Positions 6,113 through 60,143 of a stretch of DNA of 64,000 nucleotides are shown here, in pieces (positions within the stretch are counted from its first letter, which is position 1; every line of letters starts with the position of its first letter). The stretch is from the IMG/VR virus record IMGVR_UViG_3300036790_000468, positions 32,001 through 96,000 of that record; one strand, 5' to 3'. Source of the stretch: a virus. The position numbers and the translations under genes were made by a program. A model generated the notes under the pieces. The model was given only the letters and a program-made list of their open reading frames with translations. It had not been told where the DNA came from and did no database searches.

Positions 6113-6128
6113 AGAAGGATCCTTGTAA

Positions 6129-7604: not shown

Positions 7605-7605
7605 G

Positions 7606-7884
7606 TCAATGTCCTTCCTGGGTGTGGCGGATGTTCGCCCGGGCGAGCACGGCCCAGTCGGTGGTCTCCGTGGTCGGTGCCGGTCGCTGCTCGGGCGGCA
7701 GCTGCCACTCGTTGGCGACCGGCTCGTCGGTGAAGGTGGGCCGGGTCAGGCTCACCCCGTGGGTCTTGGTGACCGCGGCGAGTTCGAGGGCGACGGCGTG
7801 GCACTTGGAGCGTGGGACGCCGTTGAGCTCGAGCACGCGCTCCCACGCGGCGATGACCTCGGTGCGTATGTCGCGGGTGCTCAC
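7606..7884 (-). CDS. Hypothetical phage protein
   Basis: GTG start coupled to the upstream stop. Confidence 0.55.
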   Translation of the reverse strand: MSTRDIRTEVIAAWERVLELNGVPRSKCHAVALELAAVTKTHGVSLTRPTFTDEPVANEWQLPPEQRPAPTTETTDWAVLARANIRHTQEGH

Positions 7885-8513: not shown

Positions 8514-8552
8514 GGGTGTGCTCCAGATGGCCAGGGTTCGGGGGTGGGGCGG

Positions 8553-9095
8553 CTATGCCGCGGCGGCGGCCGCGACCGGTGCGGCCTCTGGGTCCTGCGG
8601 TGCCGGCAGTAGGCGCAGGCCCTCGGCGAGCGGGAACGAGGGGTAGACCGTGCCGTCGGGCATCGTGATCCGCCACGGCGCCGGGATCGGCTCGTAGGCG
8701 GTCCACTCGCAGCCGCGCACGGCGGGAGCCGGGGCCGGGCCGGTCGCGTCGTCGTTCTGCTCGGTGCCGGTCTCGGGCGTCTCGTCGGGCGCCCCCGGCT
8801 CGTCGTTGGGCTTGACCGCGGCGAGGTACCGGCCGAGGCACTCCTGGCCGACCCGGGAGCGCTTGTCGCGGGGGAACTCGGCCGCGGTGGCCACGTCGCC
8901 GCAGTTCGGGCAGGCGAACGCCCACTGCATCGGGTCGTCGCCGAACCTGCACCAAGCCTCGACGGCGAGCTCGGCCTGGGTCATCTCCCGGACCGCGACC
9001 GGCCGGCGGCGCGTGCCGGATCCCGTGGCCGGGACGGCGGCCGCGGTTTTGGCCGGCTGCTGGCTGCGTTGGCGGATCCTTGCCTTCGAGCTCAT
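8553..9095 (-). CDS. VVA0879-like phage protein
   Basis: RFGDDPMQWAFACPNCG...GQECLGRY...GCEWTAY. Confidence 0.7.
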   Translation of the reverse strand: MSSKARIRQRSQQPAKTAAAVPATGSGTRRRPVAVREMTQAELAVEAWCRFGDDPMQWAFACPNCGDVATAAEFPRDKRSRVGQECLGRYLAAVKPNDEPGAPDETPETGTEQNDDATGPAPAPAVRGCEWTAYEPIPAPWRITMPDGTVYPSFPLAEGLRLLPAPQDPEAAPVAAAAAA

Positions 9096-9096
9096 G

Positions 9097-10155
9097 TCAA
9101 ACCTCGGATTCGGTCGGGGAGGGGTGGTGCTCGTTGTCGGCGTCGAAGAGCTCGGCGGCGAGGATGTACTGGGCGGTGACGGTCGCGTGGTAGCCCTGGT
9201 CGACCAGGCGCTGGCAGGCGTCGGCGAGCAGGGCGCGGGCGCGTTCGGGGTCGATGGCGGCGAGGTGTTTGAGGGCGCGGCGGTAGGCGCCCTTGTCGTC
9301 GTAGCCGGCAGGAACCGGGTTCCGCGGGGCGTCGCCCTCGGCCCCGGCGCGCACCTCGGCGAACGGGGCGTGGGGGGAGGGGGCCGGGCGCGCAGCGCGC
9401 CAGGCGTCGGCGAGGGCGGGCAGGTCGCCTCGCTCGGCGACGGTGCGCCACCACTGGCCGCTGCCGGGCCGGCGCGTCTTCATGATCCATTCGACGAGGT
9501 CTCTCTCCTCGTCGGGGGCGACCACGCGCGCACTACGGATGAGCTGGATAGGAAGAGAGAGATTTTGAGATTGAGGGGATTGAGGAGAGGGGGTCCCGTA
9601 AACCGGGACCCTGAAACCGGTAAACCGGGACCCTGAAACCGGTAAACCGGGACCCTGAACCTCGGGTCCGGATCGTTCAGGGTCCTGTAAACCGGGACCC
9701 TGAATCCCGTTCAGGGTCCTAGCTTCCGGGACCCTGAACGCGTGTTCAGGGTCCTTGCTTTCGGGACCCTGAACCTCGGGTCCGGACCCTTCAGGGTCCT
9801 GTAAACCGGGACCCTGAGGAGCCGGGTTCAGGGTCCCGGTTTCCGGGACCCTGAGGGCCACGGGCGCCATCGGCATGATCACGTAGTGCGCCTGCTGGCC
9901 CTTCTGCCCGCGCACCGTCACCTTGATCGCGCCCTTGGCGACGAGCGACTTGATCGTCTCGTAGAACTGCGAGCGCGAGCAGCGCACCCGCGCGCGAAAG
10001 CGCACCGAGCGCTCGGAATCGCCCTCGTACCCGTGCCAGCCCTCGCGCGTGCCGTCGTTGGCGTTCTCCGCCAGCAGCGCCAGCACGTACCGCTCACGCC
10101 ACGTCAGCGACGCCGGGGCGTAGTCCGCCACCTCGTTGAAGAGCTTGATGCCCAC
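9097..10155 (-). CDS. Replication initiator (HTH N-terminus, internal iterons)
   Basis: LTWRERYVLALLAENAND...SRSQFYETIKSLVAKGAI winged HTH followed by a repeat-encoded linker, lambda O-like layout. Confidence 0.8.
   Translation of the reverse strand: MGIKLFNEVADYAPASLTWRERYVLALLAENANDGTREGWHGYEGDSERSVRFRARVRCSRSQFYETIKSLVAKGAIKVTVRGQKGQQAHYVIMPMAPVALRVPETGTLNPAPQGPGLQDPEGSGPEVQGPESKDPEHAFRVPEARTLNGIQGPGLQDPERSGPEVQGPGLPVSGSRFTGFRVPVYGTPSPQSPQSQNLSLPIQLIRSARVVAPDEERDLVEWIMKTRRPGSGQWWRTVAERGDLPALADAWRAARPAPSPHAPFAEVRAGAEGDAPRNPVPAGYDDKGAYRRALKHLAAIDPERARALLADACQRLVDQGYHATVTAQYILAAELFDADNEHHPSPTESEV
9591..9854. repeat. Iteron array, probable replication origin
   Basis: 8 direct copies of GGGACCCTGA and 5 inverted copies (TTCAGGGTCC), flanked by an AT-richer tract near 9550-9590. 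Confidence 0.85.
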
Positions 10156-16555: not shown

Positions 16556-16837
16556 GGAGGCTCCTGGATTCAGCGACAGAAAGAATTGCCGTCGCGAACG
16601 ACAGTAGTCCTGTCCTTCAGGAAAGTGCAAGACCTCAGTGTCGCGAGCGTGTCACGGCGCGCGAAGTGAGAGAGGGGAGTGTGCATCGTTGCACGCCACC
16701 AGCGGCGATGCCGTTCGGACATGCTCGAGGCCTGAGGCCGTTTGCCGACAGGACGTCCGGGGAGGCAACCAGTGCCAGTCATGGTGCGGATAGGATTTGT
16801 TCCTGACAGAACAACCCTCGGCGCTGGAAGGCGACCC

Positions 16838-17332
16838 GTGGCAAGTGACGCACAACCGCAGGAACCGGTGGACTGGGCCACGTGGCTACGCACCGCCCTG
16901 AACACCGCCGGCATGACCGCCGCCGACCTCTCGCGCACCGGCGTCGTCAAGTCCGAGTCGACCATCTCGAAGTGGCTGCGCGGCCCAGGCACCCCCGATG
17001 ACGCCGACACCGTGATCGCGGTCGCGCACGCGGTCGGCCAGCCCAACGCCATTGCCGCCTTGGAGGCCTCCGGGCGGCTCGCCCTGGCCGATGCGATCCG
17101 CAGCCAGATCCGCCAGGCGTACGAGGACGAGGCGCTGGTGAAGATCCGCACAAGCCCCGGCCTCGGAGAGCGTGAGCGCAAGTCGATCGCCGAGAACTAC
17201 CAGCGCCGGCGCGCGGACGCGGTGCGCATGATGGAGTACGAGATCGCCGAGGCGATGGCCAAAACGCGCCGCGGCCAGGACGGGCGCATCTCCCTAGCGA
17301 CCGACGACCTCGAGGACGCTGCCGAGGCGTAG
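16838..17332 (+). CDS. Immunity repressor (XRE-family HTH)
   Basis: WLRTALNTAGMTAADLSRTGVVKSESTISKWLRG; same strand as int and upstream of it. Confidence 0.8.
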   Translation: MASDAQPQEPVDWATWLRTALNTAGMTAADLSRTGVVKSESTISKWLRGPGTPDDADTVIAVAHAVGQPNAIAALEASGRLALADAIRSQIRQAYEDEALVKIRTSPGLGERERKSIAENYQRRRADAVRMMEYEIAEAMAKTRRGQDGRISLATDDLEDAAEA

Positions 17333-17496
17333 CGGCACTGATGTGCGGAATCATCACTCTTTCCAGTGAAAACGCCACCGTCCGGCACAGGGTCGTCCTA
17401 ATGTAAATAGCCTCAGAGGCCCGGGGCTCGGGCGGCGCAAGCCGCACGCCCGCGAGGCCGAGCGGTACGGAGGATACGGCGGTCAGGAGTCGCGAC

Positions 17497-18180
17497 ATGA
17501 TGTCAGCGGGAGAGTGTTCACCTAAGGTGAAAGCGACCAGCATCCTGGTGCGTGCAAGCCTCACGGTAGCCGTGCTCTCCTGGAGCGCGGCAACGGCACT
17601 GATCTGCCTGGATGCGGTGGGCAACGGGTATCTCGGCGTTTCGGTCGGGATTGTGACCACATGGCTGATGGGCGTCGGCGCCCTGTTCCTGATCCTGCCG
17701 ATGGCCTCTGGCGGCGACCAAAGGATCAATACGCTGATCTCCGAGGGGCTTCCCCTCGGCGACCCCGCACTCGACACCCTCCTCGTCGGAGGCACCCCGC
17801 GCCGTTGGCGCGCGATCCCCTGGGTGGGGACCGCCCTGACCGCCCTCGCCACCACAGCATGGACAGTAAGCCTGATCTACTCGATCCAGCTCGGCCTCGG
17901 CGTCTACCACCTTCCCCCCGACATCAGCCTCGGAGTACTGCGTCTGCTGATGGCCACCGCCGTCTGGCCCACCGTCGGACGCGTCGCCGGCACCGCCGAC
18001 GCCCGCCAGCGCGCCGTCTACGAGGTCGCCTGCGACGCCCACCACGCACTGCGCGGAAACCTCGCAGCCTGCGAACGCGACGTGGCCGCCTCCCTGCGCG
18101 TCCTTGAAGGCGGGGGCGCGCGCAGCCCGTGGCGCTCCCCCCGAAACGGTGGAAACGGTCGCGTGGCTCCCGGAGCATAA
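17497..18180 (+). CDS. Membrane protein (about 4 TM), possible lysogen-expressed exclusion protein
   Basis: Four hydrophobic segments; between repressor and integrase. Confidence 0.6.
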   Translation: MMSAGECSPKVKATSILVRASLTVAVLSWSAATALICLDAVGNGYLGVSVGIVTTWLMGVGALFLILPMASGGDQRINTLISEGLPLGDPALDTLLVGGTPRRWRAIPWVGTALTALATTAWTVSLIYSIQLGLGVYHLPPDISLGVLRLLMATAVWPTVGRVAGTADARQRAVYEVACDAHHALRGNLAACERDVAASLRVLEGGGARSPWRSPRNGGNGRVAPGA

Positions 18181-18185
18181 GGAGC

Positions 18186-19562
18186 ATGGGATACGCAGAG
18201 CGCTCCGGGAAGTTCGAGAACGGCAAGCCGAAGTACCGCGCGCGCTGGCAGTTGCCCGAGCGCACCGAGAAGGGGCGCCGCAAGGAGGGGCACGAGGACG
18301 GCTTCACCGACCCGGACTCCGCCCGGCAGTACGCGAACGACCAGGAAGCGCTGATCCGCGCAGGGCTGTACTTCGACCCGAGCGCCGGGAAGATAAGCCT
18401 CGCCGAGTACTTCGACCTGTGGCTCCCGATCCAAAAGGTCAAGCCAGGAACGAAACTCACCTACCGGCAGTACTTCAACCGGGAGATCAAACCCGCGTGG
18501 GGCGGCACACCCCTGGTGGAGATCAAGACCATGCGCCTCATGCAGTGGCTCGGCGCACTCAACGACCCGCAATCCCCGCGCAGACTGTCCAAATCGGCGA
18601 TCAACCTCGTCGAAACCATCCTCAACGGCATGTTCGCGCTCGCCGTCTACGAGGACCGCATCCGCAAGTCCCCGATCCCGCCTCCCTCGGCCGGCGGCCG
18701 AGGGGGCGACGGCTACAAGCCGGTGCGTGAGGGGCAGATCTTCACCCGCGACGAGTTCGCAGCCCTCCTGGCGAACCTCGCCACCTGGCACGACGTCGTG
18801 TTCTGCATCACCATGCTCTTCCTCGGCACCCGCGTCTCGGAGACCGCGGCTGTGTGCCGCAGCAAACTGAAACTGCAGGTGCCCAGGTTCCCCGGCGAAC
18901 TGTTCGAAGGCACGTATCTGCTAGATCCACTGACCGGCCAGCTCGCCAAGGACGAGTACTACGTCCTCGACTTCGCCTCACCGAAGTCAGGCCCCGGGCG
19001 CCTGCTGGACCTGCCACCCTTCCACGTCGCCCTGCTCGCCGACTGGATCGGGCGCATTCCGAAAGATCGCGACCGGCTCTTCGCCGCGCCGATGGGCGGC
19101 ATGCTGCGCGTGAACGAATGGAACGCCCACGTCTTCCGCCCGGCCTGCGACGGACGTGAGGCGTACGCCAGTCCGCACGGGCGCAACTTCCACCCGGCCA
19201 TCGCGCCTGCCTGCCCGGGTAGAGTCACCCACGACTTCAAGCACACCGCAAAATCGATCATGGCCGACGCTCGCGTGAACGAGATCATGCAGAACTACTC
19301 GCTCGGGCACCGCGAGCAGGGATCCTCGGCCCCCTACAAGCACCCCACGCCCAAGATGCGCCAGGAGCGGCTCGACGCCCTCCAGGGGATCTGGGAGGAG
19401 TGGGCCATCGAGCTCACGGAGCTCCCCGCGTGGCACGCCAAGGACGGCCCCGGCACGCGCCGCTCGGAGCTCCCGGCGCCCCGGTTCGCGGACCCCGCCA
19501 CCGTGCTTCAGTCCGTGTCGACTCCGGTTCTACTCCAAGTCGATCAGCCGACGCTTTTCTAG
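18186..19562 (+). CDS. int: Tyrosine integrase
   Basis: Arm-binding N-terminus (KYRARW...DGF), GTRVSE, SPKS, HDFKH, LGH, APYKHP. Confidence 0.92.
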   Translation: MGYAERSGKFENGKPKYRARWQLPERTEKGRRKEGHEDGFTDPDSARQYANDQEALIRAGLYFDPSAGKISLAEYFDLWLPIQKVKPGTKLTYRQYFNREIKPAWGGTPLVEIKTMRLMQWLGALNDPQSPRRLSKSAINLVETILNGMFALAVYEDRIRKSPIPPPSAGGRGGDGYKPVREGQIFTRDEFAALLANLATWHDVVFCITMLFLGTRVSETAAVCRSKLKLQVPRFPGELFEGTYLLDPLTGQLAKDEYYVLDFASPKSGPGRLLDLPPFHVALLADWIGRIPKDRDRLFAAPMGGMLRVNEWNAHVFRPACDGREAYASPHGRNFHPAIAPACPGRVTHDFKHTAKSIMADARVNEIMQNYSLGHREQGSSAPYKHPTPKMRQERLDALQGIWEEWAIELTELPAWHAKDGPGTRRSELPAPRFADPATVLQSVSTPVLLQVDQPTLF

Positions 19563-19839
19563 CGTCCGGACGATGGCAAAGTGGCACGTTGTACCTATCA
19601 ATGCCATACCGTGGTGTCTCGCTCAAAGTGGAACGACTACTTCACGAGGGCGGCGATGCCCGCGCTGCGGGTGGCCGACTTCAACATGTCCTCGGTGTCT
19701 CAGGCGAGCTGACCCGGTCTCGGCCTGCGGGGGAGGCTGTGCCGCTTCCTGTTCGATCGGTGCGCTCCGGTTCGTTAGCGTGCGTTCGCGTGCGTCCCGG
19801 GGCGTCCGCGCGCCATGATCCACTCCAAAATCACTCCAG
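19520..19839. promoter_or_regulatory. Putative attP with paired arm-type sites
   Basis: Two tandem ACTCC(A) pairs, each at 11-bp spacing (19521/19532 and 19822/19833), flanking a non-coding region after int; core not identified. Confidence 0.55.
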
Positions 19840-20049
19840 ATCTTGGCCGAATCACGGGGCTGCGACCTGCGGGAAATCGCGACGCGGACGGACGCCCGCT
19901 CCGGCGCATCCGAGGTCGGTGATCTTCGACGAGGGGGCGGCGAGCGCCGTGCCTCCACCCCTGCTGCGCCCGTTGCCCGATGCGCCACCGATCTCGACCA
20001 CGGCGGCGTATCCTCCCCGTGTACCGGCCGTCACAGGTAGGAGGGGACG

Positions 20050-20505
20050 ATGACCGGAGGGGACGGCATAGTCATCGGCGCCGTGGCCACGTTCGTGGCG
20101 ATGCGCTACGTGATGGGGGTCAGGGCTCATCGCCGCCGCCAAGAGCGTCTGCGCCGGGCCCGAGCCGAAGGGCGCGGGCTCCTCGCGGCCCAGGCCTCCG
20201 CGGCGGCGAGCCGGTCGCCAGCGCTCGCCGTGGACCTGCAGCGCCCGCAGCCTCATCCACCGACCGACGCGGTGCCCCCCGAGTATCTGTTGGCCCAGGC
20301 AGCGAAGCTCGTGGTCCAGACGCAGTACGGGTCGGTGAGGCTGCTCGAGCGCAGGCTGCGCCTGGACCGGTCCGAGGCCGAGTCCTTGATGGGCAAGCTC
20401 GAGTCGCGCGGGATCGTCGGGCCCGGCGAGGGGCGTGCGGCGCGCGACGTGCTGGTGCCGCCGGACGGATGGGAGGAGCTGTGCGGTGCCTTGGAGCAGT
20501 CCTAG
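20050..20505 (+). CDS. Membrane-anchored FtsK gamma-domain protein
   Basis: N-terminal TM; LLAQAAKLVVQTQYGSVRLLERRLRL...MGKLESRGIVGPGEGRAARDVL matches the FtsK gamma consensus. Confidence 0.85.
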   Translation: MTGGDGIVIGAVATFVAMRYVMGVRAHRRRQERLRRARAEGRGLLAAQASAAASRSPALAVDLQRPQPHPPTDAVPPEYLLAQAAKLVVQTQYGSVRLLERRLRLDRSEAESLMGKLESRGIVGPGEGRAARDVLVPPDGWEELCGALEQS

Positions 20506-21065
20506 ACCGCGCCGCACTCCGCAGCCATGCGTGAAATCGCGGCCTCGACCTCGTCCCACGGGTAGATCGGGACCCCCGTGCGCCCGTCCGGGCCCGGGAT
20601 CCGCGTCGAGGGGTGGCCGAAGCCGCCCGTGAACCTCACACCGGCGCCGCGCAGGGTAGCGATGCTCGCTGCGGCGGCCGGGTGCTGGGCGAGGGGGGCG
20701 TTGACCCAGGGCACCGCCGTGATCGGCACGCCGGAGCCGAGCCCTTCGTTGATCAAGCCCATGGCGAGGGTGTCGGAGATCCCGGCCGACCACTTGTTCA
20801 AACTATTGAACGTCAGCGGGCTGACAAGGAATGCGTCGGCGGCTGGAAGCGCCTCGGTCTCCTCCGGGCGCCGGTAGTCCGATCTGACCGGGAATCCCGT
20901 GGCTGCCTCGACCTGCGCCACCTCGCCGATGAACCGCACCGCCATCGGGGTCGGCACGACGCACACCGCGCTGAAGCCGGCCGCCGTGGCCATCGAGACG
21001 GCGCGCGGCGCCTCTCCCGCGGCGCGCGCTCCGCATACCACGACGTACAAGCACCGCTCCGCCAC
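20502..21065 (-). CDS. HFCD-family flavoprotein
   Basis: LYVVVCGA...VVPTPMA...ADAFLVSPLTFNSLNKWSAGISDTLA...PWVN. Confidence 0.85.
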   Translation of the reverse strand: MAERCLYVVVCGARAAGEAPRAVSMATAAGFSAVCVVPTPMAVRFIGEVAQVEAATGFPVRSDYRRPEETEALPAADAFLVSPLTFNSLNKWSAGISDTLAMGLINEGLGSGVPITAVPWVNAPLAQHPAAAASIATLRGAGVRFTGGFGHPSTRIPGPDGRTGVPIYPWDEVEAAISRMAAECGAV

Positions 21066-21141
21066 AATTCCTCCGAGAGCCGGGTCCGTTTGGACGCTCG
21101 GCGTGACACTATCCCGGTAGAGACCTCGAGTGCGAAAGCTG

Positions 21142-22350
21142 ATGTCGATGCCTGAGATCCTGTTTCAGGAGACGCCCGGCGACCGGGTCAAGATGCTGCG
21201 CAAACGCGCCGGGCTGACGCAGCAGGAGCTCGCGCTGCAGGTGGACCGCACCCAGGGGTGGGTATCCCAGGTCGAGCGCAGCAAATTCGATCTCGATCAG
21301 GTCTCCATCGTCAACTCGCTCGCGCGCGCGCTTCACGCCCACCCCCGCGAGATCCTCGGCGAGCCCGGCGTCGAGGACGGCGGGCACCGCGGACTCGAAT
21401 CGGCCAACGAGCTCCTGCGCCGATTGCGCCGGTTGGATCTGCCCCCGAACACCGACCTGCATCGGCCGCTCCCCGAGGTGGAGAAGGACTCGCACAAGGT
21501 CGCTGCTCTGCGCGGGGCCGCGGAATACACCGCGATGGGGTCACCGACCGTGGCCCTCTTCGAGGACCTGCACGCCGCGTGCGCCGATCCGTCGCCGAAA
21601 ACGCGCGAGCAGGCGTTCAGGCTTCTGACCTTCGCCTGCAAGGAGGCGCACTCCTTCGGGTACGGGCTGAACCATCCGCACCTGGTCGAGGTGGCAACGC
21701 TGCGGGCACGCTGGTGCGCGCAGCAGTCGGACGACCCGCTGCTCTCGGCGCTCGCCGACTACATGGCAGCGCGCGACGCGTGGACGACAGCGGACTGGGA
21801 GGATGCGAACCTGCTCGTCGACCGGGCCTTGTACACGGTGGAGTCATCGGACGCGGGGCGCGCCGCACGCGCGTCGATGGCCGGCGCGCTGCACCTACGC
21901 GCCGCGATCACCGCTGCGCGCACCGGTAACGGCGACGAGGCCTACGCCCGGCTCGACGCCGCGGCCGACGCCGCGCACGAACTCGACAACCAGGCCGACC
22001 CGTACCTCAACTGCTTCTCGACAGGCAACGTGCAGATCCACCGAGTCGCGGTCGCCGTCGAGCTCGGCGACGGCGCCGAGGCGGTGCGCGCATCGAGAGG
22101 CCTGGTCATCCCGAAGGATCTGCCGCGTTCGCGCGCCGCGCACCACTTCCTCGACACCGCGCGCGGCTGGGTGTGGGTAGGGGAGACGGAGCGCGGCCTG
22201 GCAGCGCTCGAGCGCGCGGACCGTCTCGCACCTCAGTTCGTGCGCAATCACCCGATGGCCAGGGCCACCGTGCGTTCGCTGCTGCGGGCAGAGAAGCGCT
22301 CCACTCGTGAGCGGCTGCGGAGCATGGCGACGCGCGTGGGTGTCGCCTGA
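21142..22350 (+). CDS. XRE-family HTH regulator with helical (TPR-like) C-terminus
   Basis: GDRVKMLRKRAGLTQQELALQVDRTQGWVSQVER; typical actinomycete architecture. Confidence 0.88.
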   Translation: MSMPEILFQETPGDRVKMLRKRAGLTQQELALQVDRTQGWVSQVERSKFDLDQVSIVNSLARALHAHPREILGEPGVEDGGHRGLESANELLRRLRRLDLPPNTDLHRPLPEVEKDSHKVAALRGAAEYTAMGSPTVALFEDLHAACADPSPKTREQAFRLLTFACKEAHSFGYGLNHPHLVEVATLRARWCAQQSDDPLLSALADYMAARDAWTTADWEDANLLVDRALYTVESSDAGRAARASMAGALHLRAAITAARTGNGDEAYARLDAAADAAHELDNQADPYLNCFSTGNVQIHRVAVAVELGDGAEAVRASRGLVIPKDLPRSRAAHHFLDTARGWVWVGETERGLAALERADRLAPQFVRNHPMARATVRSLLRAEKRSTRERLRSMATRVGVA

Positions 22351-22444
22351 TCAGAGGAATCTGACTCCGTATTAGCCCGGCTAATATTTCGCGCCTCCTG
22401 CGGTTCTACGGTGCCAACAGCACCTGCCGAAGGAGGCGCGCTCC

Positions 22445-22861
22445 ATGGCACTACCCGCCGAACGCCGCACACTGAAGTCGAGCGACGACGCCGCCGCGCT
22501 TGCGCAGTGGGCCGTCCACGCCGCTCAATCCCTCGACCCCGCGCTGCCGGCCCAGGCCGTGCGCGATGTCGGAGCCGTGGTGCACGCCCTGGTCGAGAAC
22601 GCGCAGCGCCACGGCACGCCGCCGATCACTGTCGAGGTGGCGGTCGCCAGCGTTCTCGTCGTCGAGGTGAGCGACCACGGCCCGGGGGCCCCGGTGATGC
22701 GCCCAGACCGAACCGGGGCCCTCGCCACCGTCGTCGATGTCCTCGCCATCCAGTGGGATGTGCTCGAGTTCGAGGGCGGCAAGACCGTATTCGCCGCCGT
22801 CGCGATCCCGGAACTCTCCTCAGCCCTTCCTGCCGCACGCACACCGCGGAGCCACCCGTGA
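22445..22861 (+). CDS. HATPase_c anti-sigma-factor-like protein
   Basis: LVENAQRHG (N box), VEVSDHGPG (G1), WDV...GGKTVFA; G2 box degenerate. Confidence 0.8.
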   Translation: MALPAERRTLKSSDDAAALAQWAVHAAQSLDPALPAQAVRDVGAVVHALVENAQRHGTPPITVEVAVASVLVVEVSDHGPGAPVMRPDRTGALATVVDVLAIQWDVLEFEGGKTVFAAVAIPELSSALPAARTPRSHP

Positions 22862-23235
22862 GCGAATACACCAACCTGAACAACCGATACCTCGAGCCCG
22901 TCTGGATCGAAGGGGAGTGGGCCTGCGTCCACGCCCCCGGCGCCCTCGACTACCTGACCCAGGAGCGCGCCCGTTCCTACCTGATCGCCGCGGCGGCCAC
23001 GTCGCCGACGGGCAACCTCGCCGTCTACCTCGGCAACACCGCCTTCTGCGACTCGGCGGGCCTCGGGCTCCTTATCGGCGCGCGCAAACGCGCAGCAGCG
23101 CGCGGCGCCCGGGTCGCTCTCGTCGCGACGCCGCCCCTCCTGCTGGAGCGGCTGGCGCTCACGGGACTCAAGGATTGCTTCGAGCTGGTGCAGAGCATCG
23201 CCGAACTCACCGACGCGTCATCGAGGAGCTCCTGA
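22858..23235 (+). CDS. STAS-domain anti-anti-sigma factor
   Basis: GALDY...FCDSAGLGLL...LALTGL with the conserved phospho-Ser position. Confidence 0.88.
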   Translation: MSEYTNLNNRYLEPVWIEGEWACVHAPGALDYLTQERARSYLIAAAATSPTGNLAVYLGNTAFCDSAGLGLLIGARKRAAARGARVALVATPPLLLERLALTGLKDCFELVQSIAELTDASSRSS

Positions 23236-23624
23236 TGGCGTTCGACGTTACCGGCGCCTCTCGCGGCGCCGCATCCGAGGGCCGAGGCCGGCCCGATGTC
23301 GCTGCGCCGTTGACGGCCCCCGAGCTCGCCCAGGCGCTGCGCGAGGCCGCTATGGTGGCGCACGGCGACCGGCGCCACGATCTCCTCACCGTGCTGAACG
23401 TCTTGGCAAGCGACCATCGCCCCGACCTGCGCGAACTACCCACGCTCTGGCAGATCACGGACGCCGTCCGAGCCGTCTCGCTCTCGCCTGGCGCCCCGTA
23501 TGCAGGGTCTGCGAACGCCGCGCAGCGCTGGTGCTGGCAGCACGGGAAGAGTCTCGCTGACCTTCTCCTGGAGGCAGCGGTGCGGATCGAAGGCGGCGCA
23601 ACTGGCCGTGAGGGCGCCGGATGA
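23235..23624 (+). CDS. Hypothetical protein
   Basis: TGATG coupling and GAGGAG RBS. Confidence 0.6.
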   Translation: MAFDVTGASRGAASEGRGRPDVAAPLTAPELAQALREAAMVAHGDRRHDLLTVLNVLASDHRPDLRELPTLWQITDAVRAVSLSPGAPYAGSANAAQRWCWQHGKSLADLLLEAAVRIEGGATGREGAG

Positions 23625-23639
23625 ACGGGCGCCTCGCGG

Positions 23640-23894
23640 TCAGTCCCGTTGTCGCCGGCGCGCGAGGCGGTTGGCGGTCATCACGTTCATCGGCACCTGC
23701 TTGGCGACCGCCCGCTCGGATTCCCCCGTCTGCTCACGCTGCGCTCGGATGGCTGCGCCGATCGAGTCCCTGACTTTCGGGAGCGCGTCGAGCAATTCGC
23801 GCTCCAGTGCGAGCCCCGCGCGCGCTCTCTGCAGGGGATCGGGAATCGCCGCGACCTGCTCGATCCACGACGCGAGTTCAGATTCCCGGGACAC
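23640..23894 (-). CDS. Small HTH protein, candidate repressor of the transfer operon
   Basis: SERAVAKQVPMNVMTANRLA; divergent from the DUF2637-traB operon. Confidence 0.6.
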   Translation of the reverse strand: MSRESELASWIEQVAAIPDPLQRARAGLALERELLDALPKVRDSIGAAIRAQREQTGESERAVAKQVPMNVMTANRLARRRQRD

Positions 23895-23933
23895 AAGAAA
23901 AGAGATTAGCGCCGCAGAGCGCCGATCCGTGCA

Positions 23934-23947
23934 TAACACCCCTGTTA
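23934..23947. promoter_or_regulatory. Inverted repeat TAACA-N4-TGTTA, candidate operator
   Basis: AT-rich palindrome in the short divergent promoter region. Confidence 0.4.
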
Positions 23948-23973
23948 CACTGCGCCGCTCGAAGGAGGACACC

Positions 23974-24867
23974 ATGGCCACACCATCCAGCACCACCCCG
24001 CAGCGCGTCCTCGCCGTGGCGCGCATCGGCGGCGGCCTGTCCCTGGTCGCCGCCGCCATGATCAGCTTCGAGGGCCTCAACGGCCTCGGCGCCCTGATCG
24101 GCATCCACCCCTCGTGGCTGCTCCCGCTCGCGATCGACATCTACGCCGTCACCTGCGCCGTGGTCGCGCTGAACCTCCCCGCGGGGCACGCCGTGCGCGG
24201 GAGCGCCGTGGGCAACGCGGCACTCGGCCTGCTGATGTCGATGGGCGGCAACTCCACCTACCGCGGCATGACCCACGGCTGGTCCGGTCACAACATCATC
24301 CTGATGGTCGCGGACGCGTGCCCCAGCCTGATCGTCGAGAGACTGATCCACCTCGTCGGCGTCCTCGCGCGCGGCGCCGCGACCACCGAGACACGCGACG
24401 AGGCCGAGGCAGCCGCGCCCGCGCCAGTCCAGGCGCGCCGCGCCCAGCACACGCCTGTCGCTACCGCGCCGCGCCACGCCGCCAACGCCCAGCCGCTACC
24501 GGGCCCGGCGCCGCAACCGACCGCTACCGCTACCACCGCGCCCCCGACTGCTACCGAGCCCGCGCCCACCGCGCCGCCGCCCACCCCCACTACCGCGCCC
24601 GCGACCACCACCGCGCCCACCGCGCCCGGCCGAACGACCTTGAGCACCCCGACCGCGCGCCAGCAGAAGATCCGCAACCTGATCCTCGAGCGCGGCCGCG
24701 AGAACGTCGACGGCGCCATGGTCGGCGAAGCCCTCGGCGTGCACCGCTCCAACGGCCGCCTCGCCCTCAAGAAGTTCCTCGAAGACCTCGACGCGGGCCT
24801 CGTCTCGCTCAACGCGTCGTCGTCGTTGTCGTCGTCACCCGCAGTCGTCCCCGCGGCAACGCCGTGA
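23974..24867 (+). CDS. DUF2637/Spd-type membrane protein with C-terminal HTH
   Basis: ISFEGLNGLG...SWLLPLAIDIYAV...SMGGN; P/T/A linker; GAMVGEALGVHRSNGR. Confidence 0.8.
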   Translation: MATPSSTTPQRVLAVARIGGGLSLVAAAMISFEGLNGLGALIGIHPSWLLPLAIDIYAVTCAVVALNLPAGHAVRGSAVGNAALGLLMSMGGNSTYRGMTHGWSGHNIILMVADACPSLIVERLIHLVGVLARGAATTETRDEAEAAAPAPVQARRAQHTPVATAPRHAANAQPLPGPAPQPTATATTAPPTATEPAPTAPPPTPTTAPATTTAPTAPGRTTLSTPTARQQKIRNLILERGRENVDGAMVGEALGVHRSNGRLALKKFLEDLDAGLVSLNASSSLSSSPAVVPAATP

Positions 24868-24937
24868 CCGGCCAGAACCCAGGCGACGACACCCGGCGAC
24901 GACAACGACGACGCACGACGACAAGGACGACGACGAC

Positions 24938-26365
24938 ATGAGCAGCGACACCACCGGAGCCGCGGCCCCCGAACCGAAACCGGGCCGGGGCCCCCGGCAC
25001 CGCACCACCCGGCACGTTCTGGTGCACGGCACCGGAGCCACCGGGGTCTCTGCGCTGGCCGCCGCCGGCCACGCCTTCGGCCCGGCCGGGATAGCCGCAG
25101 CCGCCGGAGGCGGCGTGCTCATAGCCTGCGGCGGATACGCGCTGCGCCGGACCTCGAAGTCCCGCGGCCGCAGCCAGCGTCCGGCCCCGCGCCACCGCGT
25201 GCGCCGCCCGCAGACCGCGACCGGCGCACGCACCTCGGCGGGACTGCGTCGCGACCCGGGCGCGACCCCGCGACGCCCCGGCACCTCCGCGACCGGGGCG
25301 TCGCGGGGTCGCGCCGTACCGGCCGCGACCGGGTCACGTCGCGTCGCGGGACTGCGTCGCGCACAAGCCCCGTCGCGCACCGACGCGACGAAGGGCGGCC
25401 GGCGGGTTGCGACCACCGTTCGGCGACCGCGACCGATCTCGACCGCGCCCCGCGCCGCCGGTTCCTCGCGACGCGGCAAGAGCGCGACCGCCACGCGACC
25501 CGGTCGCGCCGGCGGAACCGGGCCCGTCTCGACGCGCCGGGCCCGGGAGGCCGCGACGCGCACCCGCGTCCGCCGCGTCGCAAAGCGCCCCGCGCCGCGC
25601 ATTCCCGCGCCTCCAACCGGAGCGCCGCGCGCTACCGCGGGCCGCCGCCCGACGCGACCCCTGGCCAGCACGCCACGCGGGCGCCGCGCTGCCCGGCGGC
25701 TGCGCCGGCGCGCCGCCCGCGCCTGGCGCTTCACCTCGGCTGGCGCCAAGGCCTCGCGCCCATACCTGCGACTTCGCCCGCCCGCCCAACACGGCAAGCC
25801 GCGGCTGAAAGCGGCCGCACGCCGCCAGCCGGCGCCGGGCGCCAAGAAGCCCCCGGCGAACAAAGATACGAACACCCCGCGCGCGAACAAGGCCCCGGCC
25901 AGCGCCACCGGCAGCCAGAAGGCAGCCAGAGTCCCTGCGCCGCGCCGCCCTGCAGCCAAGCCCGGGCGCCCCATCACACCCCCCGGCCGAGAGAAGGCAA
26001 CCGTGTCCGAAGCTGATATTTCGCCCGGCGGCATCACCGCCATCATCGACTCGATCCACCAGCACCTCGACGGCTTCGAACCCGACTCCGCGCTGGCGAT
26101 CCTCGGATTCCTCTCCGGGTTCGAGTCGCTCTACACCGAGCTCGGCGGCGCGCTGCTGCGCCTCGGCGACCGCCTGGGCAGCGACTACCCGATCGACCGC
26201 TCCGTCGTCGAGCACCTCCACGACATGGGCGCACACACCCTCACCCTCGGCGCGTGGGGCGCCCAGACACACCACCTGGCCCGCGCTGCCCACGAGACCG
26301 AAATCCAGCGCATCGAGCAGCCCCGCCCGCGCGAAGGCATGTGGGACGTGGACCGCTACAACTAG
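24938..26365 (+). CDS. Transfer-associated protein: TM, Arg/Thr-rich repeat region and C-terminal TraA-like domain (possible internal start at 26003)
   Basis: C-terminus ...YPIDRSVVEHL...HETEIQRIEQPRPREGMWDV, typical of genes preceding actinomycete traB. Confidence 0.7.
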   Translation: MSSDTTGAAAPEPKPGRGPRHRTTRHVLVHGTGATGVSALAAAGHAFGPAGIAAAAGGGVLIACGGYALRRTSKSRGRSQRPAPRHRVRRPQTATGARTSAGLRRDPGATPRRPGTSATGASRGRAVPAATGSRRVAGLRRAQAPSRTDATKGGRRVATTVRRPRPISTAPRAAGSSRRGKSATATRPGRAGGTGPVSTRRAREAATRTRVRRVAKRPAPRIPAPPTGAPRATAGRRPTRPLASTPRGRRAARRLRRRAARAWRFTSAGAKASRPYLRLRPPAQHGKPRLKAAARRQPAPGAKKPPANKDTNTPRANKAPASATGSQKAARVPAPRRPAAKPGRPITPPGREKATVSEADISPGGITAIIDSIHQHLDGFEPDSALAILGFLSGFESLYTELGGALLRLGDRLGSDYPIDRSVVEHLHDMGAHTLTLGAWGAQTHHLARAAHETEIQRIEQPRPREGMWDVDRYN

Positions 26366-26427
26366 CCACCCGAGCCGGCCGGGCGCGTCAGAGTGCGCGC
26401 GGCCCCAATCTTCGAAGGGATGGGCGG

Positions 26428-28422
26428 ATGACCCAGAAGGAAAGCTGGCTCGAGGTCGAGTGGCGCCACCACGACCTCTCGACCCCGGCCCTGACCGCAG
26501 TGAGCCTCTACGCGCTCGAGGCCGCCGCGAGCCTCGTGCTCCACGATGGCCAGGTCGACGGCATCGCGGCGATCGGGGCGCTGGCTACCGCGAGCGTGGT
26601 CTGGACGCGCTCGTGCGCCTTCTGGATGGCGGTCTACCTCACCGCCGCCACGCTCGTGACCCTTGCCTGGATCCTCTACGCGGAGCACGCCAGCCCGTTC
26701 ACCGCCCGCGCCCTGACGTTCGCGGCCGGCGCGGCCGTCGGGCTCGGCGTGCTCTACCAGGGTGCCGTGCGCGCCGAACGCGCGGAGAGGCAGGAGACGG
26801 ACCGGCGCCTGGCTGCGCGTGCTGAGGCCGGGGAGTGGCCCAGCGTCTTCGCCGCCCTCGGCATCCCCGGCGTGGAACTCGTCGAGGAGAGCGAGTTCCG
26901 TGCCGGGCGCACCGCGACGCTGCGCCTGCCCGCCCACGGCCGCGCCACCTTCACCAGGGTCGCAGCCCTGGCCGAGCGGCTCGAGACGGTCCTGGACCTG
27001 CCCGGCGGGTCGGTGAAGTTCCGGCAGGGGGAGACGGCACGCGGGTTCCATGTGGACATCCACACCCGCGATGTCCTGGCCGAGGACCTCCCCTTCGAGT
27101 TCGAGACCAGCCCAACGAGCATCAGCGAGCCCTTCGACATCGGCCGCGACGTGTTCGGCGAAGACATCATGGTCCTGATTCGCGAGATCCGCGCCGCGAT
27201 CTTCGCGCCGCCCGGATCCGGCAAATCCAACCTGCTCAACGTCCTGATCGCCCGGCTGCTGCGGTGTGTCGACGTCGTGATCTGGGCCATCGACTTCAAG
27301 GGCGGCCGCATGATCAAACCCTGGCTGCAGCCCTGGTTCGAGGGCGTCACCGACCGGCCAGTGATCGACTGGGTCGCCACCACCCCCCGCGAAGCCCAGC
27401 TGCTGCTCCAGGGGCTCAAGGACGTGATCGAGCATCGATCCGGCCGCGGCGTCGGCGAGAAGATCACCCCCAGCGCGCGACAGCCCGCGATCATCCTGAT
27501 CTCGGACGAAGGGTCCTCTGTCGTCGGGCTGGACGCCGTTGCCGGGCGCGCCCTGGCAACCCTCGTGAAGGACATCATCGCCCTGGGCCGATCCGAAGCC
27601 GTCGACGCGATCCTCTGCTTCCTTCGCGCGAGCGTACCCATGACCGGCACCAGCGACCTCAAGGCGCTCTCCAAGCTGCGCATCACCCTCGGCGCCACCA
27701 GCGCGGCCGACGCGACCGCCGCCACCGACAACCCCGGCATGGGCGGCGAGGTCACAGCGTTCGAACACCCGGGCACGATGCTGGTGCAGAAAGGGCGCAA
27801 GAACGTGCGGATCGGCAAGTCCCTGCGCATGGAGGATCCCGACGTGCCCTACGTCGCAAGGATTTACTCCGACCGGCGCCCGGCCCTCGAACCCGACGCC
27901 GAGCAGGCTCTGGGAGCGGTCTACGCCGAACGCTGGAGCCTGGCGCGCTGCGGGCACCTCCTGCCGTTCGAGCGGCAGCAGGAGCTCGGATTCGATCCGA
28001 AGACGGCCGCGGCCGCCGTCGCGCAGGAGGCCGCCGCGCACCCCGCAGCGCCGGCCGCCCCGCTGACGCTGCCAACGATCCCGCCGCCGCCGGCGAACGC
28101 ACGCCCCGCCTACAAGACCGTGCAGGGCGAGCCGATACCGCGCGCGCTCGACGACCAAGCGGTCGAGGACCTTTTCGCCGGCCTGCGCGGCCAGGTCGAC
28201 GAGGCTCTGAGTTCCGTGCGCATCGGGCCAGAGCGGATGCTCGCGCTCGTGCGTGCGGCCGGCCGAGAGGGGATCTCCCCGAAGTCCTTGACCGAGCAGC
28301 TCAACGCGGAGGACATCGGCGTCGGGCGCCAAGCCGTGCACGACTGGCTCACCGAGGCAATCAAAGACGGACTGATCATCCGGCGACTGCGCGGCGAGTA
28401 CGTGGCGGCCGAGTATGCCTGA
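26428..28422 (+). CDS. traB: TraB-like FtsK/SpoIIIE conjugative DNA translocase
   Basis: N-terminal TMs, Walker A APPGSGKS, WAIDFKGG, Walker B IILISDE, GRSEAV, C-terminal winged HTH. Confidence 0.88.
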   Translation: MTQKESWLEVEWRHHDLSTPALTAVSLYALEAAASLVLHDGQVDGIAAIGALATASVVWTRSCAFWMAVYLTAATLVTLAWILYAEHASPFTARALTFAAGAAVGLGVLYQGAVRAERAERQETDRRLAARAEAGEWPSVFAALGIPGVELVEESEFRAGRTATLRLPAHGRATFTRVAALAERLETVLDLPGGSVKFRQGETARGFHVDIHTRDVLAEDLPFEFETSPTSISEPFDIGRDVFGEDIMVLIREIRAAIFAPPGSGKSNLLNVLIARLLRCVDVVIWAIDFKGGRMIKPWLQPWFEGVTDRPVIDWVATTPREAQLLLQGLKDVIEHRSGRGVGEKITPSARQPAIILISDEGSSVVGLDAVAGRALATLVKDIIALGRSEAVDAILCFLRASVPMTGTSDLKALSKLRITLGATSAADATAATDNPGMGGEVTAFEHPGTMLVQKGRKNVRIGKSLRMEDPDVPYVARIYSDRRPALEPDAEQALGAVYAERWSLARCGHLLPFERQQELGFDPKTAAAAVAQEAAAHPAAPAAPLTLPTIPPPPANARPAYKTVQGEPIPRALDDQAVEDLFAGLRGQVDEALSSVRIGPERMLALVRAAGREGISPKSLTEQLNAEDIGVGRQAVHDWLTEAIKDGLIIRRLRGEYVAAEYA

Positions 28423-28600
28423 GATCTCCTACGCCGCGGCCGCGCGTGTTGGGCTGCTGCTGCGGGCCGTCCAGGCCGGCGACAGGGCATTGGTGGCTGA
28501 GATGCTGCTCTCCATCCCCGAGGCCGAGGTCGGGGCGGTCGAGGCCCGGCTGCGCAGATTCGGCGCCGACCCCGCGATACTGCTCGCTCCCACTACGTAG
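28415..28600 (+). CDS. Small hypothetical protein
   Basis: Overlaps the traB stop. Confidence 0.5.
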   Translation: MPEISYAAAARVGLLLRAVQAGDRALVAEMLLSIPEAEVGAVEARLRRFGADPAILLAPTT

Positions 28601-28629
28601 TGTCCGCGCGAGAGTGCTACCGTAGAGCC

Positions 28630-28709
28630 TTGCTCCCCGGCTTGCCGGGGATGAACCCGGAGCGGTTGTTGCTTCCCGCTCTCTCCCCGCCTCGCGCGGG
28701 GATGGCATA
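28630..28709 (+). CRISPR. Two type I-E CRISPR-repeat-like units with a 21-nt spacer, no cas genes
   Basis: TTGCTCCCCGGCTTGCCGGGGATGAACCC and TCTCTCCCCGCCTCGCGCGGGGATGGCATA versus the canonical I-E repeat GTGTTCCCCGCGCCAGCGGGGATAAACCG. Confidence 0.6.
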
Positions 28710-28793
28710 CGACTTCGAGCCCCTGCCGAGGACCATCCGGCAGGGGCTTCGTCGTGAGCGGTGACGAAGGCGTAGCCCAGGCACGACGAAAGC

Positions 28794-28817
28794 GGCCCCA
28801 CCCCGAAGGGTGGGGCC
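28794..28817 (-). terminator. Intrinsic terminator of the late operon
   Basis: GGCCCCACCC-CGAA-GGGTGGGGCC hairpin followed on the minus strand by GCTTTCGTCGT. Confidence 0.75.
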
Positions 28818-28833
28818 ATCGCTCTGCCGGGGC

Positions 28834-29643
28834 TCAGTGCCGACGACGTCGCCCTCCGCGCCGCGACCGCCCGGGGCGCCGCCACCGCCGGCCACCAGTC
28901 GGCAGCGCCCGATGATCGCGTGCGGGCACGAGCGTCGCCAGCGCCACGGAGACCAGTGGCAACGACGGCGCCGGGTGCAGCGGCGCGTCCGCTCCGCTCG
29001 CTCCCCCCGTCGGCGTGCCGCTCGCACCCGAGGGCGACGCGCTCGCCACCGGGGTGCACGCGTAGTTCGGCGCCGGCTGCTGGGTGTCGAGCGGGCACGT
29101 GTAGACGTTGCCCTGCGGATCGGTCAGCGAGAACCCGGCCGGCGGTGAACCCGGCGCGCCGCTCGGGCCGGGCGCTCCCTGCTGGCCCGCCGGTCCCTGC
29201 GCGCCTTCGGCCCCGGCCGCGCCGGGTTCGCCGGGGGATCCCGGTGCGCCCGGTGATCCTGCGGCGCCCGGGCTCCCCGGCGGTCCCGCCGGGCCGCTCG
29301 GCCCGCTCACGCCGGGGCCGCCGATGGCGCCGGGCGAACCGGCCACGCCGCTCGCGCCCACCGCACCCGGAGCGCCAGCGGCTCCGGCCGGCCCGGCCGG
29401 TCCGGCCGCGCCCTGGATGATCTGCGCCGGCGCCGGGGGAACCGGGGTCACCCCGTGCGCGCGCAGCTGCGCCTCAGCCGTCGTCAGATTCTCGGCCAGC
29501 GCATCGATCGCCCTGCCCTGCGTGTCGATCGCGGCGTGCTGGGAGGCGAGCGTCGAGATCACCCAGACTCCGAGGGCGGCCGCGAGCACCGCTGCGAGCG
29601 CCACCCACCACTTGCGCAGCACCACGCCGGCATGTCGCATCAC
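28834..29643 (-). CDS. Membrane-anchored collagen-like protein of the lysis cassette
   Basis: TM, coiled coil, long Gly-X-Y run, two C-terminal Cys. Confidence 0.8.
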
Positions 29644-30140: not shown

Positions 30141-31133
30141 TCAGGGGTGGATCTTGAGCTTCGCGCTCGTGCGCGGCCCGACGATCCCGTCGACCAGCAG
30201 CCGCGACTCGCGCTGGAACGCTGAGACCTCCTGCGCGGTGAGCGGACCGGCCACCGAGTCGGTGCCCCCGGCACCGAGGTGCTCGGCCGCGAGGGCCCGC
30301 TGGACCACCAGGGTCCGGGCGACCAGCGCGCCCCACGTGTGCTCGCCGACGATCCCGTCGACCAGGAGCGCCGCCGCCTTCTGATACGCCTTGACGGCAG
30401 CGAGGGTGTCGGGCCCGAACCGGGCGTCGACGCCCTTCGGATCCTGCCCGCCGAGCATCAGCGAGCGCTGCAGCACCTCCACCCAGTACCCGGACTCCCC
30501 GAAGGACACCGTCGGCCGGCCCGCCGCGGCCGCCGACGGCGCGGGGGCCGGGGGCGACGGCATCCACAGCCCCGCGGTGGAGGCGGCCTCGTCCAGGTCG
30601 ACGTCGACCCCGCCGAGAGTCGTGCCGTTGAGCACCTGCCGGATGGTGTACGCCGGCGCCCACTGACCCGAGGACCAGGCGTAGGTCTGCCACAGGTAGT
30701 CGTAGCCCGCGGCGTGCGCCGCCTCGATCACCTCGTAGTCGCCGTACACCCCGACCAGAGCCTTGGAGCCCTCGGCGTCCGAGGCTCCGTGCAGGTAGTC
30801 GAGCACCGACCCGATCTGGCCCGTCGTCGCATCCAGGTCGACCGCGAAGTAGATCGGCAGGCCGGCCGGGAACCCGAGGGCGCTGGCCTGGGCGCGCGCG
30901 GTCCCCGCCTCCGCCAGGCCCTGGGCGTACCCGGCGAGCGGGGAGACACCGGTGGTCTCCCACACCAGCCCGATCCCGATCCCGACGGCGTGCAGGCCGT
31001 CGCGCTCCGAAGTGGTCAGGTTCTTGCTCGGGTCGGCGCTCACGTAGCGCATCGCGTAGGCGATTCCCGCGGCCTTGAGAGCGGCGGTGGACGGAAGGTC
31101 GAAGGCGTAGTCGACGCCGCGAACAGTGGTCAT
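30141..31133 (-). CDS. Endolysin: DUF1906/Rv2525c-like glycoside hydrolase plus two peptidoglycan-binding domains
   Basis: GVDY...RYVS...KNLT...LVWE...PIYFAVD...GVYG...WQTYAWS; DGIVGEHTW and DGIVGPRT. Confidence 0.9.
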   Translation of the reverse strand: MTTVRGVDYAFDLPSTAALKAAGIAYAMRYVSADPSKNLTTSERDGLHAVGIGIGLVWETTGVSPLAGYAQGLAEAGTARAQASALGFPAGLPIYFAVDLDATTGQIGSVLDYLHGASDAEGSKALVGVYGDYEVIEAAHAAGYDYLWQTYAWSSGQWAPAYTIRQVLNGTTLGGVDVDLDEAASTAGLWMPSPPAPAPSAAAAGRPTVSFGESGYWVEVLQRSLMLGGQDPKGVDARFGPDTLAAVKAYQKAAALLVDGIVGEHTWGALVARTLVVQRALAAEHLGAGGTDSVAGPLTAQEVSAFQRESRLLVDGIVGPRTSAKLKIHP

Positions 31134-60138: not shown

Positions 60139-60143
60139 AGGAG

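Follow-up and report, generated by a model that had tools for sequence, protein, structure and literature searches.

A type I-E repeat mini-array in a soil phage genome as a candidate RNA anti-CRISPR

Results

A repeat-spacer-repeat element in a convergent intergenic gap

The DNA analysed here, referred to as the window, is a stretch of 64,000 nucleotides (nt) that comprises bases 32001-96000 of the IMG/VR virus record IMGVR_UViG_3300036790_000468, which is 127,504 bp long and is rated complete by CheckV. The guanine-plus-cytosine (GC) content is 67-77% across the window. Our subject is a short element on the plus strand, the mini-array, in which a guide-like spacer (psiS) is flanked by two units (psiR1 and psiR2) that mimic the repeats of type I-E CRISPR systems, and which we consider a candidate RNA anti-CRISPR. 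The mini-array sits in a 233-nt gap between convergent genes, where the end of a plus-strand operon faces a minus-strand block of virion and lysis genes (Table 1). Unit 1 is full-length: a 7-bp stem closed by a tetraloop forms a hairpin at 28634-28651 and is followed by the 8-nt handle ATGAACCC. Unit 2 keeps the CT...stem...ATG frame, the hairpin, the cut site and the first 3 bases past the hairpin, its last 5 bases are degenerate, and its 5-nt loop is one base longer than that of unit 1. The repeat period is 50 nt, and processing by Cas6e is predicted to yield a product of 51 nt. The 5' end of psiS can pair with the 3' end of psiS and with the first 3 bases of unit 2.

Table 1. Features at and around the mini-array (positions in the window).
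Feature	Position	Strand	Remark
FtsK/SpoIIIE-like gene	26254-28422	+	phrog_31069, E 2.6e-43
Small 61-amino-acid (aa) open reading frame (ORF)	28415-28600	+	last gene of the plus-strand operon; overlaps the last bases of the FtsK-like gene
Possible extended -10 element, TGC TACCGT	28615-28623	+	7 nt upstream of unit 1; putative
psiR1 (unit 1), full-length type I-E repeat mimic	28630-28658	+	29 nt
psiS, guide-like spacer	28659-28679	+	21 nt
psiR2 (unit 2), repeat mimic	28680-28709	+	hairpin 28685-28701
Terminator-like hairpin of the cassette	28719-28755	+	10-bp GC-rich stem 28719-28747, then TTCGTCGT
Inserted module, relative to L203	28630-28787	+	about 158 nt
Hairpin common to window and L203	28794-28817		16 nt past the tail-fibre stop
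Collagen-like tail-fibre gene	stop 28834-28836	-	part of the virion/lysis block
Endolysin gene	30141-31133	-	virion/lysis block, with large tail proteins

Several analyses bear on what else the region might encode. The ORFs that overlap the element (54 aa on the plus strand, 136 and 240 aa on the minus strand) lack the coding GC pattern of this genome. A search of Rfam around the site returned 8 matches at E<=10, none of them CRISPR-related and all far below gathering scores, a result that is uninformative, as a genuine Streptomyces array likewise gave no match to a CRISPR family. Neither unit was called as an intrinsic terminator in a terminator scan, and no T-run follows either stem; actinobacterial terminators often lack T-runs, which makes this test a weak one. 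The hairpin at 28794-28817 is probably a bidirectional terminator. Upstream of unit 1, the -10-like core GCTACNGT is conserved by alignment in two related phage loci (L203 and L124); the -10 consensus is TAnnnT.

The units match a genuine type I-E repeat frame

To compare the units with repeats of known type, a frame, TGCTCCCCG-N6-CGGGGATGAACCC, was taken from a Streptomyces type I-E array (L233). Unit 1 fits this frame at all 22 of its 22 fixed positions with 0 mismatches, and the window holds no second match at up to 3 mismatches, nor did any of 100 shuffled windows match. The frame common to both units, CTCCCCG-N3-9-CGGGGATG, is matched twice in the window, both times in the mini-array, against a shuffle mean of 0.01 with 0 of 100 shuffles reaching two; the whole record has the same 2 forward matches, 0 in reverse and 0 in the control. 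Although CCCCG..CGGGG hairpins occur 10 times in the record, CT and ATG flanks are present on the two in the mini-array only, and the match to the type I-E frame continues past the stem, by 5 bases on the 5' side and by 8 bases on the 3' side. Unit 1 qualifies as a type I-E repeat, and unit 2 by its stem and cut site only. The element is not a canonical CRISPR array, which would have at least three repeats at a period of about 61 nt and usually lie near cas genes, since it consists of two units at a 50-nt period in a record in which no cas genes were found: neither Cas6e, Cse1, Cas7e nor Cas3-HD was detected in its 127.5 kb.

The core of unit 1 was present at no fewer than 120 loci in bacterial genomes. 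Among the 120 listed, 109 have the canonical 29-nt form and lie mostly in arrays with a 61-nt period, and 11 are single matches with other loop lengths that look like chance. The bases flanking the hairpin that come closest to unit 1, among these listed loci, belong to the repeats of two Streptomyces records, and in both of these genomes Cas6e is encoded beside the repeats. Unit 1 is identical to the repeat of one Streptomyces array (L091) at 22 of 29 positions, the differences being confined to the tetraloop, a single stem pair that is flipped, and position 1. In sequence and in fold, unit 1 therefore has the similarity to the CRISPR type of its candidate hosts that is looked for in a Racr. 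A single look-alike could be luck, as many windows were screened, and this worry is removed by the paired architecture at a class-typical period; the mini-array is very probably a genuine derivative of type I-E repeats.

These results bear out most of what the earlier note, written from the letters of this DNA alone, had read at the site. Its 29-nt unit with type I-E hallmarks is the unit that fits the frame at 22 of 22 positions, a match that none of 100 shuffles gave, and the comparison with host repeats that it had called for returned Streptomyces (L091 at 22/29, the L233 frame at 22/22). The 21-nt spacer, the degenerate second unit and the 50-nt period can all be read in the sequence. The pairing that it described between the spacer 5' end and the start of the second repeat involves the first 3 bases of unit 2, together with the spacer 3' end. 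Its statement that cas genes are absent holds for the four Cas proteins looked for across the whole record, and its estimate of a Cas6e product of about 51 nt equals our prediction.

Similar mini-arrays in other viral contigs

Having established the form of the element, we asked whether it recurs in viruses. The core pattern matched 89 viral loci, and pairs of units separated by 20-23 nt numbered nine, in 5 of these 89 loci, versus none among the 120 bacterial loci listed. A sixth viral case, L263 (IMGVR_UViG_3300044691_000429), lay outside the regular expression of the pair search, as its second repeat ends in GGGGTT. Unit 1 itself had no exact copy in viral contigs. Both L263 and a second case, L243 (IMGVR_UViG_3300049164_000073), are high-GC phage contigs. 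The L263 element has a 50-nt period, a 21-nt psiS and a degenerate psiR2 tail, and its terminator ends in GGGGCTTCGTCGT, like that of the window. The local alignment score between the window and L263 was 38 for the whole cassette (shuffles 18.6 +/- 2.4, maximum 30, n=300) and 28 for the downstream part alone (shuffles 14.9 +/- 2.4, maximum 26, n=300), and L263 has no gene homology to the phage of the window.

The mini-array of L243 lies on the minus strand at locus positions 3108-3367, and its second repeat has CCTTGCTCCCCG...CGGGGATGAACCC in common with unit 1. L243 shares terminase-region genes with the phage of the window, and its mini-array is located elsewhere in the genome. Its psiS matches the guide of a native Streptomyces mini-array (L360, described below) at 13 protospacer-adjacent motif (PAM)-proximal positions, and the AAC-flanked target of that guide at 12. 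Judged by these matches, the L243 guide is a putative viral copy of a Streptomyces regulatory guide.

Further observations were made in the viral contigs. A third contig, L241 (IMGVR_UViG_3300045988_157337), holds four repeat-like units separated by 20-nt guides, and the motif GCTAACT begins both the L263 guide and the sequence past the last repeat of L241. No target of the L263 or L241 guides was found in the first 62 Streptomyces loci. Just upstream of the L243 and L263 mini-arrays there is a hairpin, CTCCGC-GCGA/GCAG-GCGGAG, that resembles the repeat stem except for a single compensatory C-G to U-A change; only a fragment of it occurs in the window, at 28603-28614 (TCCGCGCGAGAG).

Streptomyces type I-E loci carry mini-arrays of the same build

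Type I-E systems are common in Streptomyces, the candidate host genus, as Cse1 was found in 166 of 401 sampled genomes of this genus (that of G001). We examined 122 Streptomyces type I-E loci (763 kb), consisting of 120 regions upstream of cse1 or cas3-cse1 and two further loci. They contain 11 distinct mini-arrays with 18-22-nt spacers, obtained from 15 raw rows after removal of 4 opposite-strand duplicates. For 7 of the 11 (L354, L356, L360, L366, L385, L399 and L401, with guides of 20-21 nt), an AAC-flanked target with 9-17 PAM-proximal matches is present in the same locus. In four loci whose targets have 12 matches (L354, L356, L360 and L366), guide positions 6 and 12 are the mismatched ones, which is the signature expected of Cascade-bound regulatory guides (CreR). 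The spacers of ordinary arrays are 32-33 nt long, as compared to the 20-21 nt that is usual in the native and the viral mini-arrays. In the native psiR2 units the tail is degenerate, and those of L354 and L366 share with unit 2 a loop that is longer by one base. From their sequences, the native mini-arrays with AAC targets look like CreR-type autoregulation in Streptomyces. In the main texts of three CreR and Cracr papers, Streptomyces is not mentioned.

Two side observations concern type I-E loci. Many of the Streptomyces Cse1 matches lie in open frames of about 1450-1800 aa, and in L233 one frame (5497-10113) holds the Cas3 HD, helicase and C-terminal domains together with Cse1, forming a Cas3-Cse1 fusion; such fusions are known in Streptomyces. 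L488 (3838-3927; G711:C15) has three repeat-like units at 36- and 25-nt spacings beside a type I-E locus. The repeats of that locus carry the ATGAACCC handle, and the three-unit cluster is unlike the 20-21-nt mini-arrays.

The mini-array is part of an insert

The closest relative retrieved, L203, has 55% identity over the FtsK-like protein and shares with the window the FtsK-like gene, the small ORF, the motif GCTACNGTNGAG and the final hairpin. Between these conserved flanks there are about 158 nt in the window versus 29 nt in L203. The GCTACNGTNGAG motif and the final hairpin lie at 28618-28629 and 28788-28817 in the window and within 7190-7262 in L203, and the 29-nt filling of L203 holds a small hairpin of its own. 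The site between motif and hairpin may be a general slot for small-RNA expression in this phage lineage. As read from the alignment, the module is an insert that would bring its own terminator and lies upstream of a pre-existing, probably bidirectional terminator.

Other searches returned no relative that carries it. A unit with the ATGAACC tail was present in 0 of 102 related loci (80 metagenome and 22 viral, by alignment-based scans), a blastn search of 27800-29000 against 50,697 phage records gave no match, and a single-protein viral scan for close relatives found none. No attachment-site (att)-like direct repeats that flank the module on the plus strand were found, and the sole transfer RNA genes are at 59964-60139.

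Neighbouring genes and identity of the phage

The record is the genome of a tailed phage rather than that of a plasmid or an integrative and conjugative element, and its source is a large soil phage of high-GC bacteria. The ORF of the FtsK-like gene is 722 aa long, against 664 aa for its called homologue (P0001), which places the true start further downstream; its Pfam match to DUF87 is weak only, and among its 69 homologues the best non-self protein is 66% identical. The best capsid homologue is 83% identical. In a tblastn search with the FtsK-like protein, all matches were below 60% identity and came from phage records of Streptomyces (9), Saccharomonospora (1) and Thermobifida (1), and a phylum sample held weak homologues in 4 of 401 genomes. 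The identical phage sequence is present in the source sample, and two other soil studies contain 151-nt pieces of it, with no informative variation.

The 61-aa ORF has a coding GC pattern that fits (0.76/0.52/0.85 by codon position). It has homologues 3' of the FtsK-like gene in L203, L124, L123, L125-128, L130 and L205, and it is kept in relatives that lack the mini-array. In L123, L125-L128 and L205 the small ORF is followed by a further plus-strand gene starting MMGKTHA or MLGRTHA; in this phage, L203 and L124 there is an intergenic region instead. The plus-strand block at 16742-28600 holds repressor-like genes, a match to a tyrosine-type integrase (phrog_1), an ORF that resembles a fragment of FtsK, and the FtsK-like gene.

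This setting alters one part of the earlier note. It had placed the element downstream of traB and suggested that it could protect DNA entering a recipient. The location after a translocase-type gene stands; the gene itself is an FtsK/SpoIIIE-like phage gene. The conjugation reading is unsupported, because this is tailed-phage DNA and the FtsK-like gene is one of a phage lineage.

Discussion

A candidate RNA anti-CRISPR

We consider it probable, at roughly 0.6, that the mini-array functions as a Cracr/Racr-class RNA anti-CRISPR, and we infer the following functional steps from its architecture. Transcription would start from the -10-like element upstream or arise by read-through of the operon that contains the FtsK-like gene. 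Cas6e cuts at the 3' base of the stem in E. coli and Thermus, and host Cas6e would cut the base of both hairpins of the mini-array. In the released 51-nt RNA, an 8-nt 5' handle (AUGAACCC) would precede the 21-nt guide, with a 22-nt hairpin at the 3' end, and the parts conserved in both units are those that are in this predicted RNA or are needed for making it. The RNA would then assemble a shortened Cascade with about two fewer Cas7 subunits, and in so doing draw Cas6e and the Cascade subunits away from the CRISPR RNAs (crRNAs) that target the phage. Were its guide also to match, in part, a host site with an adjacent PAM, for example the promoter of a cas gene or of a safeguard toxin, repression would occur there too. 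Shortened guides are reported to assemble Cascades with fewer Cas7 subunits (Kuznedelov 2016).

Its likeness to systems already described is close. In Cracrs, a viral or plasmid-borne psiR-psiS-psiR mini-array lies outside a CRISPR-cas locus, and the window element shares this form, its type I-E mimicry, a short guide and a degenerate last repeat. Viral type I-E Cracr arrays with psiS of 24 and 21 nt have anti-CRISPR activity, Cracr RNAs of this type compete with crRNAs and tighten cas autorepression, and the predicted target hosts of Cracrs include Actinomycetota (Liu C. et al., 10.1101/2024.10.29.618823). Unlike those arrays, the window element has one guide only and comes from a high-GC soil phage, and the link that defines Cracrs is missing from the loci and genomes searched: we found neither a host CreR or CreA guide with which the window guide has at least 9 PAM-proximal bases in common nor a match to a PAM-flanked cas or creT promoter. 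The mini-array is therefore filed as a candidate, not a proven, member of the Cracr group, a counter-defence type that was already described in 2023-2026. Racrs are likewise viral repeat mimics located away from cas genes, and like them the window element would bind Cas6 and Cas7 in competition with crRNAs; two type I-E Racrs are active and inhibit by competition (Camara-Wilpert et al. 2023, PMC10651486). Racrs are, however, solitary repeats, whereas the window element has two units around a guide-like spacer. In CreR-type RNAs, psiR1 keeps the bases of the 5' handle and psiR2 keeps the hairpin but not the last bases (Shmakov et al. 2023, 10.1101/2023.03.03.530964; Liu et al. 2023, 10.1101/2023.03.10.532045). 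This architecture and pattern of conservation are identical to those of the window element, and the 20-21-nt build is that of the Streptomyces loci; CreR and CreA, in contrast, are located within cas loci, and the cas promoter that they target is their own, whereas the window element is on a phage. The view of the earlier note that this is a repeat-derived, crRNA-like element on mobile DNA devoid of cas genes agrees with both the host and the viral comparisons.

Points against an anti-CRISPR role

A number of results weigh against this interpretation, most of them from the search for a target of the guide and for a host. In the 122 Streptomyces type I-E loci, the best AAC-flanked PAM-proximal run was 8 bases, which 59 of 200 shuffles reached, and no native psiS in these loci is like the guide of the window (best run 2 bases). 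A pattern of PAM plus guide gave 3 matches in 401 Streptomyces genomes as compared to 4 for the control. For a pattern of handle plus guide, the matches among about 150 places listed (with 65 further matches beyond these) all have 2-3 mismatches, and many of these listed matches are strings that recur in several genomes. No exact copy of the guide was found in the viral contigs of IMG/VR, and in its own phage genome the guide has 24 weak matches versus 26 for the control. Neither 728 Streptomyces CRISPR spacers (best 25/28) nor 3955 other spacer-like queries (best 22-24 nt) gave a convincing match to the phage. The ATGAACCC handle is a minority type, being the commonest in 2 of the 44 Streptomyces loci that have an array of at least 3 repeats, and the frame of unit 1 is present in 3 of 381 class-level genomes.

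Features of the element and its surroundings point the same way. The guide can fold on itself (7 bp), and the module is placed among terminator hairpins between convergent genes. A consensus promoter scan found 0 sigma-70-type sites at the mini-array; as regards the promoter that is looked for within 250 bp upstream of a Racr, there is the conserved TGC-TACCGT 7 nt upstream, and read-through is possible. A one-base change in loop size, of the kind seen in unit 2, has been linked to poor processing by Cas6e (10.1101/2024.10.29.618823). No relative with the same element was found, hence there is no test of conservation or covariation, and no RNA run containing the phage was found.

The remaining target searches help to place these results. 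The method works, as it recovered the target of L243. No target of the window guide was found in the loci of G001, G002, G711 and G904, nor in those of the three genomes that have the frame of unit 1. The guide is complementary to the 5' end of host-type repeats at its positions 1-5 and 7, with a mismatch at position 6, and each repeat of a host array thus constitutes a seed-only match flanked by CGG instead of AAC. Because the guide start is the reverse complement of the repeat 5' end, many matches in one of the target searches were artefactual. No match in 191 phage loci (1.52 Mb) exceeded 17/21, and none had an AAC PAM; 15 matches reached at least 16/21, versus 6 for the reversed control. 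The search of the spacer against cas promoters and mobile elements with a PAM, which the earlier note had proposed, accordingly ended with no target found. With neither a guide target nor a host found, both a decoy and a guide-dependent repressor remain as readings of the sequence. The earlier note had further held that the RNA would sequester Cascade or repress a target without cleavage; the latter clause is unsafe from length alone, since spacers above 20 nt in length remain capable of interference in E. coli (Kuznedelov 2016).

Alternative explanations

The element could instead be a neutral relic, that is, a captured piece of a host array or regulatory mini-array that is decaying in a tolerant intergenic gap and has no role for the phage. 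In favour of this are the degenerate second unit, the lack of a target and of any relative among the 102 related loci that keeps the element, and a phage sequence that is identical wherever it is seen, with no sign of selection. The degeneration is not random, however, as it spares exactly the parts of a mature crRNA-like RNA, and the 21-nt spacing agrees with native and viral mini-arrays that look functional, whereas ordinary arrays have 32-33 nt. The element also has its own terminator, and its cassette resembles that of L263 in an unrelated phage contig. We consider a relic unlikely.

In another reading, high-GC phages that are not related to one another exchange the cassette as a portable RNA module, with a guide aimed at a site other than a cas promoter. 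We regard this as decidedly unlikely. If true, the phage would reprogram host Cascade as its own repressor, with a target in the host, in a defence system or in a rival element, and with a guide slightly longer than 20 nt Cascade might even serve as a nuclease. The seed-only match of the guide to the repeats of a host array could bear on this reading. A homing or PAM-erasure reading was tried and rejected, as the guide has no counterpart at the empty site of L203 or elsewhere in the 191 phage loci.

It is very unlikely that the mini-array is offensive, with a guide that turns host Cascade-Cas3 on a rival phage or plasmid for attack or silencing. Mini-CRISPR arrays carried by viruses do serve interviral conflicts (Medvedeva et al. 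2019, PMC6858448), the window element shares with them a repeat-spacer-repeat form on a virus and a reliance on host Cas proteins, and its spacer exceeds the 20 nt above which interference is supported in E. coli (Kuznedelov 2016). Their spacers, though, match related viruses, whereas no viral match was found for the 21-nt spacer of the window, there being no exact copy in IMG/VR and, in the 191 phage loci, nothing better than 17/21 and nothing next to an AAC PAM. The spacer is also shorter than all ordinary spacers in the arrays examined.

That the units are two GC-rich terminator or attenuator hairpins with a merely accidental resemblance to type I-E repeats is highly improbable. The site lies between convergent genes, two more strong hairpins are close by, and the fold of the 236-nt stretch as a whole is unusually stable (z -4.4, 0 of 200 shuffles). 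Some look-alikes are to be expected when very many windows are screened, and 11 of the 120 listed loci are chance-like matches. The match nevertheless extends beyond the stem into the non-palindromic handle, the two units share their flanks at the class-typical 50-nt period, no T-run follows either unit, and L203 ends the same operon without such units. Finally, a cis-acting clt-like locus for the neighbouring FtsK/TraB-like translocase is scarcely credible: the element lies directly downstream of the translocase gene and ACCCGGA, formed by the unit 1 tail and the spacer start, resembles the 8-bp TraB recognition motif of Streptomyces plasmids, but 28000-29400 has no direct-repeat family of more than two copies and relatives with the same translocase lack the module.

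Significance

As a candidate RNA anti-CRISPR, the mini-array adds a soil actinophage example to a group known mostly from Proteobacteria and Firmicutes. Judging from the native loci, self-targeting regulatory mini-arrays that use an AAC motif are apparently common in the type I-E systems of Streptomyces, and L243 points to the copying of a Streptomyces regulatory guide by at least one uncultured phage. The cassettes are candidate off-switches for the engineering of Streptomyces phages and for genome editing with native type I-E systems, and a guide that has no known target provides a handle for finding what else phages silence via Cascade.

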